This document shows positions 2,784 through 8,196 of a DNA stretch of 10,991 nucleotides, one piece after another; within the stretch, counting starts at the first letter, position 1; each line of letters opens with the position of its first letter. The notes under the pieces were generated by a model. The model was not told the origin of the DNA. It did no database searches and worked only from the letters and a program-made list of their open reading frames with translations. Origin of the DNA: a virus; the UHGV virus genome UHGV-1820253, one strand, 5' to 3'. Made by a program: the position numbers and the translations under genes.

Positions 2784-2868
2784 TTTACCTCTAAGGTAAT
2801 TAAAAACCACATAAGACACGAAATCAATAGATTTTAGAATATTTTATTACCCAACAGGTAATTATCAA
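2784..2868 (-). promoter_or_regulatory. Putative internal promoter with two operator palindromes upstream of the nin-position cluster
   Basis: Minus strand reads TTGATA (-35, plus coords 2863-2868), 16-nt spacer, TAAAAT (-10, 2841-2846). The spacer is the perfect palindrome ATTACCcaacaGGTAAT (2846-2862). A second site, TTTACCtctaaGGTAAT (2784-2800), overlaps the RBS of the 2434..2781 gene. Confidence 0.45.
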
Positions 2869-4712: not shown

Positions 4713-4818
4713 GGTAAGCCCTGTTATTAGTATTGGGATTACGGTCATTTTGTGCTGACACAAAAAAAAGATCAACCAGATTTGGTTTTTTATTACCTTT
4801 GAGGTGCGAATAGATATG

Positions 4819-4862: not shown

Positions 4863-5093
4863 TCATGAGTAGAAGAAGTATGCCAGTTCTGCTTTTGAGC
4901 GCAGCCATTGTCTTGTTTTACAGGCTTTAAAAAGCCCATTCATCAATACTTTACCTGGCATTTTGCGCTTACCTGTTAAGTGAGTCTGGATATAGTGACT
5001 CGTCGTTCCGGCTTCCTGTGCGAAGGCTTCACGCTCATCCGGAGTAAGTGCAAGCCAGTGCTTTTTGAAATCGAAATGTCCGTTATCGCTCAT
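4863..5093 (-). CDS. Cro-like small HTH DNA-binding protein (76 aa)
   Basis: ATG at 5093-5091; divergent from the repressor candidate across an operator-bearing intergenic region; first gene of the minus-strand replication operon; HTH-like segment AFAQEAGTTSHYIQTHLTG. Family assignment is tentative. Confidence 0.6.
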   Translation of the reverse strand: MSDNGHFDFKKHWLALTPDEREAFAQEAGTTSHYIQTHLTGKRKMPGKVLMNGLFKACKTRQWLRSKAELAYFFYS

Positions 5094-5117: not shown

Positions 5118-5146
5118 GATAATAAATATTCACCCATAAGGTAACA
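5118..5146 (-). promoter_or_regulatory. Putative PR-like promoter for the Cro-like/replication operon
   Basis: Minus strand TTGTTA (-35, 5146-5141), 17 nt, TATTAT (-10, 5123-5118); an operator half-site pair sits in the spacer. Confidence 0.35.
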
Positions 5147-5193
5147 AAAATCAAGGATAGTTACCTATGGGGTGCATTTACCTGTTGGGTAAT
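5128..5193. promoter_or_regulatory. OR-like operator cluster: three 17-bp sites matching WTTACC-N5-GGTAAW
   Basis: TTCACCcataaGGTAAC (5128-5144), TTTACCtatggGGTGCA (5160-5176, degenerate right half), TTTACCtgttgGGTAAT (5177-5193). They lie between the divergent Cro-like and repressor genes. Confidence 0.5.
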
Positions 5194-5247
5194 ATTGCTT
5201 TAAATTGAATCATCTACTGATTCATATACGAGGCGATTTTCCAGAAA

Positions 5248-5832
5248 ATGAAAAGTATCCAGGACGTCCGCAGGCAAAATCTCAACGACTTGATCGACCG
5301 TGAATTCAATGGTGTTCAGACGCGGATGGCAGAAAAACTTGGAACTCAGGCAAATCTGGTAAACCGCTGGGCTCTTGGCAAGAAGGTTATCGGCGACCAG
5401 GTTGCGCGAAAAATTGAAGCTGCCGCCAATAAACCCCGTAACTGGCTTGATATCGATCGCTCGCTTTCTCAGGAAGGTTTTCAGCCTGTCGGCCCAAGCG
5501 ACATTGGTCAGCTGGCGGCTCACAACCTGGAACGCTGGATGAGCGAAAGCCGCGACCTTTCAACACAGGGAAAACTTCACCGCGCATCCGGCGTCGCCCA
5601 GGTGACAATCAGCCGCCTGTTAAACAATGAGGTCAGCGTTTCCATTTCCACCCTGGAGAATGTTGCATCCGCATTCGGGCGTCACGGCTATGAATTACTG
5701 ATTCACCCGCACGACCCTGCGACCATCAACTATGACCGCTCGCGCTACGCATTGTTACCCGAAACCGAGAAAGCAAAGATCGAAAGTTACATTGAATTTG
5801 TCATCAACCAGAACGAAAAAAACAAACAATAA
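5248..5832 (+). CDS. Tandem-HTH (two XRE-like domains) transcriptional regulator; candidate prophage repressor (CI analog)
   Basis: ATG 5248; two HTH-like segments (QTRMAEKLGTQANLVNRWALGKKV and LHRASGVAQVTISRLLNNEVSVSISTLENVASAF); flanked by operator clusters on both sides; followed by a strong intrinsic terminator; no GDSM-type S24 peptidase motif seen. Confidence 0.7.
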   Translation: MKSIQDVRRQNLNDLIDREFNGVQTRMAEKLGTQANLVNRWALGKKVIGDQVARKIEAAANKPRNWLDIDRSLSQEGFQPVGPSDIGQLAAHNLERWMSESRDLSTQGKLHRASGVAQVTISRLLNNEVSVSISTLENVASAFGRHGYELLIHPHDPATINYDRSRYALLPETEKAKIESYIEFVINQNEKNKQ

Positions 5833-5852: not shown

Positions 5853-5876
5853 AAGCCGCCTTCTGGCGGCTTTTTT
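5853..5876 (+). terminator. Rho-independent terminator downstream of the repressor gene
   Basis: Stem aaGCCGCC (5853-5860) paired with GGCGGCtt (5865-5872), loop ttct, T6 run at 5871-5876, 21 nt after the TAA stop. Confidence 0.8.
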
Positions 5877-5888
5877 ATTGTCTACACA

Positions 5889-5967
5889 ATTACCTTAAGG
5901 GTAATTTTTTTAACTCATATCTATTGACACCAAACCAAATACGCATAATCATTACCTCAACGGTAAC
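5889..5967 (+). promoter_or_regulatory. OL/PL-like region: two operator palindromes flanking a promoter for the plus-strand recombination operon
   Basis: Perfect palindrome ATTACCttaagGGTAAT (5889-5905) and ATTACCtcaacGGTAAC (5951-5967). Perfect -35 hexamer TTGACA at 5924-5929. The nearest good -10 (CATAAT, 5944-5949) is only 14 nt away, so exact promoter elements are uncertain. Confidence 0.5.
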
Positions 5968-6140: not shown

Positions 6141-6440
6141 ATGAACGTTAATCAGCAGAAAAATCTTCAAAAAATCATGCTGGCATTCGACAAGGACTAC
6201 CGCCTGTCAGAACAGCTATATGACCGACAAGTCGAACTGATTGAGAGTATCCGGCTTCATCAACTGGCCTCAACTTTTGACGTTGTAACAGGCAAAGGCG
6301 TTCGTCAGGAAGTGCTGGAGGCCGCTAAAGACAGCCCTGAGTTCGAAGAACTAATGGATGCCTACCGGCGAGAGGCAATGGCAATTATCGCCCGCTGGGA
6401 TCTGGCGGATCAGCTTGATGGACAGAAGGACGCGGCATGA
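6141..6440 (+). CDS. Hypothetical protein (99 aa) translationally coupled to the exonuclease
   Basis: ATG 6141 with GGGAGGG 7 nt upstream (preferred over the track start at 6126); TGA overlaps the ATG of the exonuclease (ATGA at 6437-6440). Confidence 0.6.
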   Translation: MNVNQQKNLQKIMLAFDKDYRLSEQLYDRQVELIESIRLHQLASTFDVVTGKGVRQEVLEAAKDSPEFEELMDAYRREAMAIIARWDLADQLDGQKDAA

Positions 6441-7258
6441 AACCGGGAATTTATTTCGGCATCAGCAACGAAGACTACCACGCCGGTGACGGCGTGAGTA
6501 AGTCGCAACTTGACATGGTTGCCAAGAATCCGGCGCTTCTTAAATGGGTTCAGGCAGCACCAGAAGACGAAGAGAAAAAGTCTGCACTGGATATGGGAAC
6601 CGCATTGCACTGTCTGCTTCTGGAACCTGGAGAATTCGACAAACGCTTCATCGTTTCACCGAAATTCGATCGTCGGACAAAACAAGGTAAAGCTGACGAA
6701 GAAGCATTTCTTCGTGATGTGGCGGATATGGGTATTACGGTACTTGATGTCGAGCAGTGGCGAAAACTGGAGCTGATGCGTGATAGCACAATGGCTCACC
6801 CGGCTGCACGCTGGATGTTGGAAGCACCTGGTTACTGCGAAGCGTCAATGTACTGGAACGATGAAGAGACGGGTGAGTTGTGCCGAATTCGTCCAGACAA
6901 ATGGCTGAACGAGCACAACGTGATCGTCGACGTGAAAAAGGTTGCAGATATGGACCGTTTTGCACGCCACATCGAGGAATTCCGCTACCACGTGCAGGAC
7001 GCAATGTACCGCGAAGGCGCAATGAGGGTTACTGGTCAGCCGCATGGTTTTTTCTTTCTTGCCGTGAGCGAAAGCATTGATTGTGGTCGGTATCCGGTAC
7101 GCGTGTTCGAGCTGGATGCGCAGGATGTCGATGCCGGGCACGCTCTGTTCCGCCGGGATCTGAATACCTATCACGAATGCCGCATCAATGATGAATGGGG
7201 CGGTGTGGAAATCATTAAACGCCCTGAGTGGGCACGCAAACAGGATATGTACATATGA
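6437..7258 (+). CDS. PD-(D/E)xK family exonuclease (RecE C-terminal nuclease-like), partner of the annealase
   Basis: Motifs GISNEDYHAGDG, GTALHCLLLEP, IVDVKKV (D-x-K) and YHVQDAMY (QxxxY), as in the RecE/lambda Exo/RecB nuclease fold; ATGA overlaps with both neighbouring genes. Confidence 0.8.
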   Translation: MKPGIYFGISNEDYHAGDGVSKSQLDMVAKNPALLKWVQAAPEDEEKKSALDMGTALHCLLLEPGEFDKRFIVSPKFDRRTKQGKADEEAFLRDVADMGITVLDVEQWRKLELMRDSTMAHPAARWMLEAPGYCEASMYWNDEETGELCRIRPDKWLNEHNVIVDVKKVADMDRFARHIEEFRYHVQDAMYREGAMRVTGQPHGFFFLAVSESIDCGRYPVRVFELDAQDVDAGHALFRRDLNTYHECRINDEWGGVEIIKRPEWARKQDMYI

Positions 7259-8196
7259 GCAACGACATCGCAAACATCAACGCACCAGTAGACACAGCAA
7301 TCGCTGGAACTGCTGCAACTATTTTCAGCCCAGACGGCTTGAACCAACTGATGAAATTCGCCGAGGTAATGGCGCAAAGCCGCGTAACGGTACCGGCGCA
7401 CCTCGCCGGGAAACCAGCTGATTGCATGGCCGTGGCAATGCAGGCTGCGCAGTGGGGAATGAACCCGTTTGCCGTGGCTCAGAAAACCCATGTTGTGAAC
7501 GGCACGCTAGGTTATGAAGCCCAATTAGTAAACGCAGTTATCTCAACGATGTCGCCAACAAAAGATCGCATCAACTACGAGTGGTTCGGGCCGTGGGAAC
7601 GCGTGATCGGTAAGTTTGTTGAGAAAACATCCAAAAACGGCAATCCATATATTGCACCAGGCTGGACTCTAAAAGACGAAGAAGGCTGCGGTGTTCGCGT
7701 ATGGGCAACCATGAAGGGCGAGGATCAACCTCGAGTGCTTGAGTTAATGCTATCTCAAGCACAGGTAAGAAACTCCACACTTTGGGCCAGTGATCCGAAA
7801 CAACAACTCGCATACCTTGCGACAAAACGCTGGTCTCGCTTGCACTGTCCTGACGTAATCATGGGCGTCTACACACCAGACGAATTACAGGAAACGGCAC
7901 CGCGCGTTGAGCGAGACATTACTCCGCAAACGACCACTGCTGCGGGAATGAACAGTCTGATCAACGCTAAACAAGTGAAAAAGCCTGATGAGCAAACGCG
8001 TAAAGCGGATAGCCGTGATCCAGAAGAAATGCTGATGGCCTTTACCAGCGCAGCGATGAATTACAGCACTGTCTCCGAACTGGATAAAGCTTACAAATAC
8101 ATTGCACAAAAACTTTCAGATGATGACGAACTGCTGGCAAAAGCCACCGACGTTTACAGCGTTCGTCGGGAAGAATTAAACGAAACATCTATGTAA
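7255..8196 (+). CDS. RecT/Red-beta family single-strand annealing protein
   Basis: ATG 7255 overlaps the exonuclease TGA (ATGA); the track's 7228 start is a GTG inside the exonuclease gene. Similarity to RecT-family annealases recalled from memory, plus the classic exonuclease-annealase pairing. Confidence 0.8.
   Translation: MSNDIANINAPVDTAIAGTAATIFSPDGLNQLMKFAEVMAQSRVTVPAHLAGKPADCMAVAMQAAQWGMNPFAVAQKTHVVNGTLGYEAQLVNAVISTMSPTKDRINYEWFGPWERVIGKFVEKTSKNGNPYIAPGWTLKDEEGCGVRVWATMKGEDQPRVLELMLSQAQVRNSTLWASDPKQQLAYLATKRWSRLHCPDVIMGVYTPDELQETAPRVERDITPQTTTAAGMNSLINAKQVKKPDEQTRKADSRDPEEMLMAFTSAAMNYSTVSELDKAYKYIAQKLSDDDELLAKATDVYSVRREELNETSM

Follow-up and report, generated by a model that had tools for sequence, protein, structure and literature searches.

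A probable Rep-type immunity repressor, with two helix-turn-helix segments and no self-cleavage domain, in the early region of a phiV10/epsilon15-like E. coli prophage

Our analysis indicates that the gene in the cI position of a 10,991-nucleotide stretch of viral DNA (UHGV-1820253; the window), which is the early region of a phiV10/epsilon15-like E. coli prophage (genus Uetakevirus), very probably encodes a Rep-type immunity repressor of the phiV10/epsilon15/SPC32H-like phages that is inactivated by a LexA-controlled antirepressor, Ant. The Rep system is already known for the Uetakevirus group, having been published in 2013 (Kim and Ryu, J Virol) and 2016 (Kim et al., PNAS), as described in papers that cite this work. 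The product of the gene analyzed here (rep) does not differ from that of a phiV10 gene already annotated, the function of which was tested in phage ZX5, and crystal structures as well as an established antirepressor mechanism exist for its family. The gene, its domains, and its candidate regulatory sites are listed in Table 1.

Results

Identity, map position, and distribution of rep

The rep product is 100% identical to phiV10 ORF40 (phiV10p40), whose GenBank record carries the note "two helix-turn-helix motifs," and it matches the transcriptional regulator family phrog_8 (E=4.5e-27). In a phmmer search against PDB sequences, residues 1-190 aligned with 5d50_A, which is labeled "Repressor" (E=4e-42), and a match was also obtained to the C-terminal fragment 5d4z_A (E=4e-20). 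By tblastn, the 5d50 repressor sequence is that of a Salmonella phage SPC32H gene with the annotation rep, and SPC32H Rep is 97% identical to the epsilon15 "repressor" (gene 38), the gene to which we take the clear-plaque mutants of epsilon15 to map. A BLASTP comparison of the rep product with SPC32H Rep gave 42% identity over the full length (E=2e-53), distributed as 53% in the N-terminal domain, 33% in the middle domain, and 46% in the tail.

A previous sequence-only reading of this DNA had proposed a repressor candidate in the cI position, and the gene arrangement bears this out: the open reading frame is present, it is divergent from a Cro-like gene, and replication genes lie on one side with recombination, AlpA, and integrase genes on the other. 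More specifically, reading along the + strand, lambda-P-like and DnaT-like replication genes (-) are followed by the Cro-like gene (-), rep (+), and then genes for a PD-(D/E)XK exonuclease, RecT, an AlpA-like protein, a PerC-like protein, and an MT-A70 protein (all +), with the integrase gene (-) at the end. The 2.1 kb around rep show 97-100% identity to phiV10, to the O157 typing phages 9 and 10, to vB_EcoP_ZX5, and to others, and this 2.1-kb region is present in prophages of 563 of the 5,426 complete E. coli genomes; rep itself was found in 537 of them. In E. coli AR_0086, rep is 100% identical and the prophage adjoins guaA.

Table 1. Positions of the repressor gene, its domains, and its candidate regulatory sites in the window
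Feature	Position	Strand	Evidence
rep, immunity repressor (probable), 194 aa	5248..5832 (ATG 5248, TAA 5830-5832)	+	ORF list of the window; identity to phiV10 ORF40; 5d50_A match; phrog_8
N-terminal HTH DNA-binding domain (predicted), residues 1-72	5248..5463	+	YdaS/Cro-like HTH 21-61; AF2 helices 24-31, 35-42
Second XRE/HTH_3-like five-helix domain, residues 84-155	5497..5712	+	HTH_3 106-147; AF2 helices 84-151; 5d4z match (Rep residues 92-198)
Short C-terminal segment, residues 156-194	5713..5829	+	AF2 helix 172-193; 46% identity to SPC32H CAD region
Intrinsic terminator after rep, 8-bp stem + T run	5853..5872	+	Consensus scan; annotated terminator in phiV10
Cro-like gene, 76 aa, divergent from rep	4863..5093	-	phrog_35 transcriptional repressor, E=5.6e-13
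Terminator-like hairpin directly 3' of the Cro-like gene	4841-4822	-	Consensus scan
Right operator cluster, three 17-bp palindromes between the Cro-like gene and rep	5129-5145, 5160-5176, 5177-5193	.	Pattern search, repeats
PR-like promoter TTGTTA-17-TATTAT towards the Cro-like gene	5119..5147	-	Consensus scan, pattern match only
Left operator pair, 62 bp start to start, downstream of rep	5889-5905, 5951-5967	.	Pattern search, repeats
PL-like promoter TTGACA-17-AATCAT, bracketed by the left operator pair	5924-5952	+	Consensus match only
Third operator pair, TTACCTCTAAGGTAA and TTACCCAACAGGTAA, perfect, 62 bp apart	2784-2800, 2846-2862	.	Pattern search
Promoter-like site TTGATA-16-TAAAAT, spacer filled by one operator of the third pair	2868-2841	-	Pattern match

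A consensus scan of positions 5160-5247 gave no promoter for rep on the + strand, and no Shine-Dalgarno sequence was seen at the usual distance from the rep ATG within 5200-5247, the nearest GAGG being ~17 nt away. The lambda cI transcript initiated at PRM is leaderless, and the rep maintenance transcript might be leaderless in the same way. In SPC32H, a TACAAT hexamer ends 5 nt before the rep ATG. No RNA family was found in the window at the Rfam gathering threshold. A 107-aa antisense open reading frame on the minus strand (5200-5523) was treated as spurious, since it falls wholly inside the conserved rep gene or antisense to it, and no record lists it.

Domain architecture and fold of the rep product

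The sequence-only reading had also described two XRE-type HTH segments, at about residues 25-50 and 110-145, and a domain search, together with a structural model, located both of them. Pfam HTH_3 matched residues 106-147 (E=1.2e-9; 38.5 bits versus a cut-off of 23, reported as two stretches), and a Cro/YdaS-like HTH was detected at residues 21-61 with a score under the Pfam gathering score (E=3e-4). The AlphaFold2 (AF2) model, built with 28 homologues in the alignment (mean pLDDT, 78), consists of helices throughout and falls into three parts, i.e., an N-terminal domain of four helices, in which residues 24-31 and 35-42 form the HTH, a five-helix XRE domain spanning residues 84-151 with HTH helices 107-114 and 118-125, and a short tail with a long helix at 172-193; residues 74-83 form a disordered linker between the two domains. 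The recognition helix of the N-terminal HTH reads ANLVNRWA, and its residues N36, R40, and W41 are invariant in the 28 homologues. In a Foldseek search of the model against the PDB, 5d50 and 5d4z were the only strong matches, and the remaining matches were generic XRE HTH proteins, such as SinR, DdrO, Stl, and P22 C2-NTD.

According to PMC9986798, SPC32H Rep comprises an N-terminal DNA-binding domain, a middle dimerization domain (MDD), and a C-terminal tetramerization domain (CAD) that also binds Ant. By analogy with this homologue, the second HTH of the rep product is best read as the MDD equivalent, with an HTH fold that would serve oligomerization rather than a second DNA-reading head, and residues 156-194 would be equivalent to the CAD, with predicted roles in tetramerization and Ant binding. 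Hence, of the proposal that the protein has "two HTH domains," the structural part holds for both segments, but in the solved homologue DNA binding belongs to the N-terminal HTH only. The tempting misreading of the second HTH-like domain as another DNA-binding head, instead of an oligomerization module, is thereby corrected.

No self-cleavage domain in the rep product

It had further been claimed that the C-terminus of this protein shows no S24 peptidase signature. In agreement with that claim, Peptidase_S24 and other peptidase families gave no match in the rep product at E<=10 (Pfam, NCBIfam), and no cryptic S24 domain came to light; the model contains helices only, and no LexA/UmuD-like fold occurs among its Foldseek PDB matches. 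Only ~40 residues follow the second HTH domain, which are too few for an S24 fold to fit the C-terminus. The rep product sequence is also devoid of AG and CG dipeptides, and hence of an Ala-Gly or Cys-Gly site for cleavage. The missing S24 match, the lack of these dipeptides, the all-helical model, and the absence of a LexA-like fold match argue against a LexA/lambda cI-type autocleaving repressor.

No COG2856/M78 metalloprotease gene lies beside rep, whose neighbors are the Cro-like gene and small genes assigned to phrog_898 and phrog_856, which argues against a repressor of the ImmR/ImmA or DdrO/IrrE type. Likewise, no ImmA/IrrE-type protease is annotated in the window, in phiV10, or in the AR_0086 prophage, where the only entry of this kind is a head-maturation protease/peptidase.

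Operators and promoter-like sites

Palindromes of 17 bp with the sequence ATTACC-N5-GGTAAT are found on both sides of rep, overlapping divergent promoter-like sites. In the window, we searched for the 17-bp palindrome (core TTACC-N5-GGTAA) with at most 2 mismatches and compared the counts with 200 shuffles. The window contains 10 such sites versus 3.06 expected, a number that none of the 200 shuffles reached. The motif is likewise enriched elsewhere, with 14 sites versus 0.65 expected in phiV10, 18 versus 0.52 expected in SPC32H, in which the motif also occurs in the rep-cro interval, and 15 versus 0.8 expected in a related whole-prophage locus (L002). The motif occurs at matching map positions in the window, SPC32H, and phiV10 despite the 42% identity of the Reps, and it fits the invariant N36, R40, and W41 and the predicted N-terminal DNA-binding domain.

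In the right cluster, the operator nearest the Cro-like gene overlaps the -35 hexamer and spacer of the PR-like promoter. The 62-bp spacing of the left pair is repeated in SPC32H (33604/33666) and phiV10 (31953/32015). The third pair sits downstream of the P-like replication gene, between it and a DUF1064-type gene (named from phiV10p45), and one of its operators fills the spacer of a promoter-like site, which suggests a third Rep-controlled early promoter. This pair is conserved in phiV10 (35070/35132) and SPC32H (35972/36034). The 62-bp operator pairs would suit one Rep tetramer bridging two operators.

A further operator-like site with 2 mismatches was observed at 4793-4807, past the terminator-like hairpin of the Cro-like gene and before the next early gene. 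Rep-type operators also extend beyond the immunity region: three related prophages (L001, L002, and L003) each contain at least 13 of them versus <1 expected, with conserved sites ahead of int and of the first head-region gene, at the beginning of the small terminase gene, and to either side of ant.

A probable LexA-controlled antirepressor in prophages with the same rep

The sequence-only reading suggested that induction may need an antirepressor or another signal, and it advised looking for an antirepressor gene elsewhere in the prophage. An ant gene is not in the window; outside it, relatives with an identical rep carry an Ant homologue behind a LexA box. More specifically, phiV10p24 (85 aa) matches 5d50_E, labeled "Anti-repressor protein" (E=4e-46), and the 85-aa Ant of relatives with identical rep is 89% identical to SPC32H Ant. 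The E. coli AR_0086 ant gene is divergent from the tail-fibre gene, as in SPC32H, and is preceded by a LexA box, TACTGTATAAATATACAGTT, the last base of which is 19 bp upstream of the start codon; this box deviates from the consensus at 1 position, and no better match occurs within 47 kb. Beyond the LexA box, in the upstream direction, there is a Rep operator, and SPC32H is arranged alike. Every relative examined that shares this rep carries ant (phiV10 and E. coli AR_0086). Across phage records, Rep was present in 36 and Ant in 35, and among the 5,426 complete E. coli genomes the ant region was found in 529, compared with the 537 that carry rep. By extension from these relatives, the prophage from which the window derives probably also carries ant.

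In L002, which has an identical rep, a second gene (35680-36336, minus strand) encodes a 218-aa Bro-N "phage antirepressor," the C-terminus of which (residues 137-210) shares 42% identity with the small Ant of the SPC32H type (E=6e-16). This Bro-N gene closely follows ant, is read from the same strand, and is separated from it by a Rep operator. The ZX5 "anti-repressor" that has been tested is a Bro-N-type protein and not the small SPC32H-type Ant (PMC9782041).

Discussion

Proposed mechanism of repression and induction

According to PMC9638917 and PMC6868357, SPC32H Rep is a tetramer on DNA, each pair of DNA-binding domains being drawn from separate dimers; Ant, itself a tetramer, engages two dimers of Rep and thereby breaks the Rep tetramer. 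For Salmonella prophages of the SPC32H kind, PMC7380047, citing Kim and Ryu 2013, gives the order of events as SOS response, LexA cleavage, and Ant synthesis, with no repressor cleavage. For ZX5, it is reported that the repressor ORF21 shares its sequence with phiV10 ORF40 and that its overexpression eliminated free phage and lowered the transcripts for endolysin by 99.99% and those for holin by 99.97% (PMC9782041).

Extending the SPC32H scheme to the window, we propose that the N-terminal domains of Rep would read the operator half-sites, that the middle HTH-like domain would form dimers, and that the C-terminal domain would join two dimers into a DNA-binding tetramer, which could bridge operator pairs 62 bp apart. 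Upon DNA damage, LexA cleavage would de-repress the 85-aa ant, expected ~27 kb from rep beside the tail-fibre gene and outside the window, and tetrameric Ant would bind Rep and split the tetramer into dimers, leading to reversible release from DNA. Induction would then proceed without RecA-stimulated self-cleavage of Rep. That the phiV10-type Rep would tetramerize, bind Ant, and resist RecA-stimulated cleavage is an extrapolation from the biochemically studied SPC32H Rep, to which it is only 42% identical (33% in the middle domain). The expectation that induction is unlikely to occur by RecA-stimulated autocleavage and may involve an antirepressor is therefore supported, both by the homology to SPC32H Rep (E=4e-42) and by the LexA-boxed Ant in relatives. 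Induction should still be RecA-dependent, indirectly, because LexA must be cleaved; therefore, a comparison of recA+ and recA- backgrounds, as had been proposed, would not distinguish the antirepressor route from autocleavage.

Alternative readings

It is conceivable that both HTH domains bind DNA, giving two reading heads per monomer and composite or bipartite sites. The match of the second domain to HTH_3 exceeds the Pfam gathering score, and its putative recognition helix contains Q118 and R123, which do not vary among the 28 phiV10-type homologues. Nonetheless, the equivalent domain of SPC32H Rep is the dimerization domain, with DNA binding assigned to the N-terminal domain (PMC9986798); moreover, the operators consist of plain two-fold palindromes whose half-sites are identical, a second motif was not observed, Q118 is replaced by Pro in SPC32H Rep while the operators are unchanged, and conservation among the folded parts is lowest in the middle domain (33% identity to SPC32H Rep). 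Taken together, these observations make two reading heads improbable, and we favor the oligomerization role of the second domain.

Inactivation of Rep by proteolysis, either through cryptic self-cleavage or through a partner metalloprotease of the ImmA/IrrE type (COG2856), as for ImmR and DdrO, would have precedent, given that these XRE-type repressors are cleaved by partner proteases and that DdrO is among the weak fold matches of the model. We regard it as very improbable in view of the lack of any S24 or other peptidase signal in the rep product, of any metalloprotease annotated in the window, and of any ImmA/IrrE-type enzyme in prophages with the same rep, where a dedicated LexA-controlled Ant is found instead. 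Equally little weight can be given to the idea that the rep product is a HigA/VapI-like antitoxin or accessory regulator and that immunity is supplied by another gene. The record of phage BP9 labels the gene "plasmid maintenance system antidote protein VapI," and there are weak, sub-threshold NCBIfam matches to HigA, HipB, and RstR, but the HigA match reaches 18.7 bits versus a cut-off of 47.7 and no toxin open reading frame adjoins rep. The gene lies between divergent operator-bearing promoter-like sites, opposite the Cro-like gene, its homologue goes by the name rep in SPC32H and "repressor" in epsilon15, and lytic genes are shut off upon overexpression of the identical ZX5 protein (PMC9782041), all of which argues for the immunity repressor.

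Comparison with known systems

The closest counterparts are SPC32H Rep (PDB 5D4Z and, crystallized together with Ant, 5D50) and the epsilon15 repressor, which share with the rep product full-length homology, the three-part architecture, the map position, the operator motif, and the 62-bp operator pairs; the operator spacers are A/T-rich in those phages, whereas they are of mixed sequence here. In SPC32H, ant is syntenic with that of the relatives of the window, beside the tail-fibre/tailspike gene and with a LexA box and Rep operator upstream; no Bro-N protein with an Ant-like C-terminus is annotated in SPC32H, in contrast to the E. coli prophage, which has one. Compared with phiV10 ORF40 and ZX5 ORF21, there is no difference at the protein level, although the flanking accessory genes of the window are mosaic relative to phiV10 and ZX5. 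With lambda cI, P22 C2, and LexA-type repressors, the system has in common the lambdoid-style immunity position, an N-terminal XRE-type HTH, several palindromic operators at divergent promoters, and SOS-linked induction; unlike them, the rep product is without an S24 domain, an Ala-Gly site, and a Ser-Lys dyad, and the SOS signal would be relayed by LexA-controlled Ant rather than by repressor self-cleavage. The Gifsy prophages and coliphage 186 (Tum) are alike in logic, in that LexA represses an antirepressor that binds a non-cleavable repressor (PMC7380047), and their resemblance to the rep system is one of mechanism only.

Implications

These findings are of use for annotation, as RefSeq calls rep only "helix-turn-helix domain-containing protein" or "helix-turn-helix transcriptional regulator" and calls the small ant "hypothetical protein," which affects 537 of the 5,426 complete E. 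coli genomes (~10%). On a more speculative note, which we consider unlikely, the data can be read as a network that combines cross-immunity and cross-induction across host genera, a second route through another Ant-domain protein, and a Rep/Ant feedback loop. With respect to its parts, phiV10-type E. coli phages and epsilon15/SPC32H-type Salmonella phages could be cross-immune and cross-inducible, because Reps that are 42% identical share half-sites and 62-bp pairs and the Ants are 89% identical. The Bro-N/Ant fusion of the E. coli members might provide an additional, possibly SOS-independent induction route, and the Rep operators flanking ant would create a Rep/Ant feedback loop.

Two further observations concern the window outside the immunity region. 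Positions 1-2400, which hold accessory genes of an ead/Ea22-like, nin-type region, are mosaic, and the full 10,991-base window is matched by none of the complete E. coli genomes, the best coverage being 84-87%. The genes for the PD-(D/E)XK exonuclease (6437-7258) and RecT (7228-8196) are separate and overlapping in the window, whereas phiV10 annotates a single RecE-RecT "fusion." The sole indel over 1,761 aligned bases is located at window position 7237, where phiV10 has AAAA versus AAA here, and the phiV10 fusion may reflect either a homopolymer sequencing error or a real frameshift.
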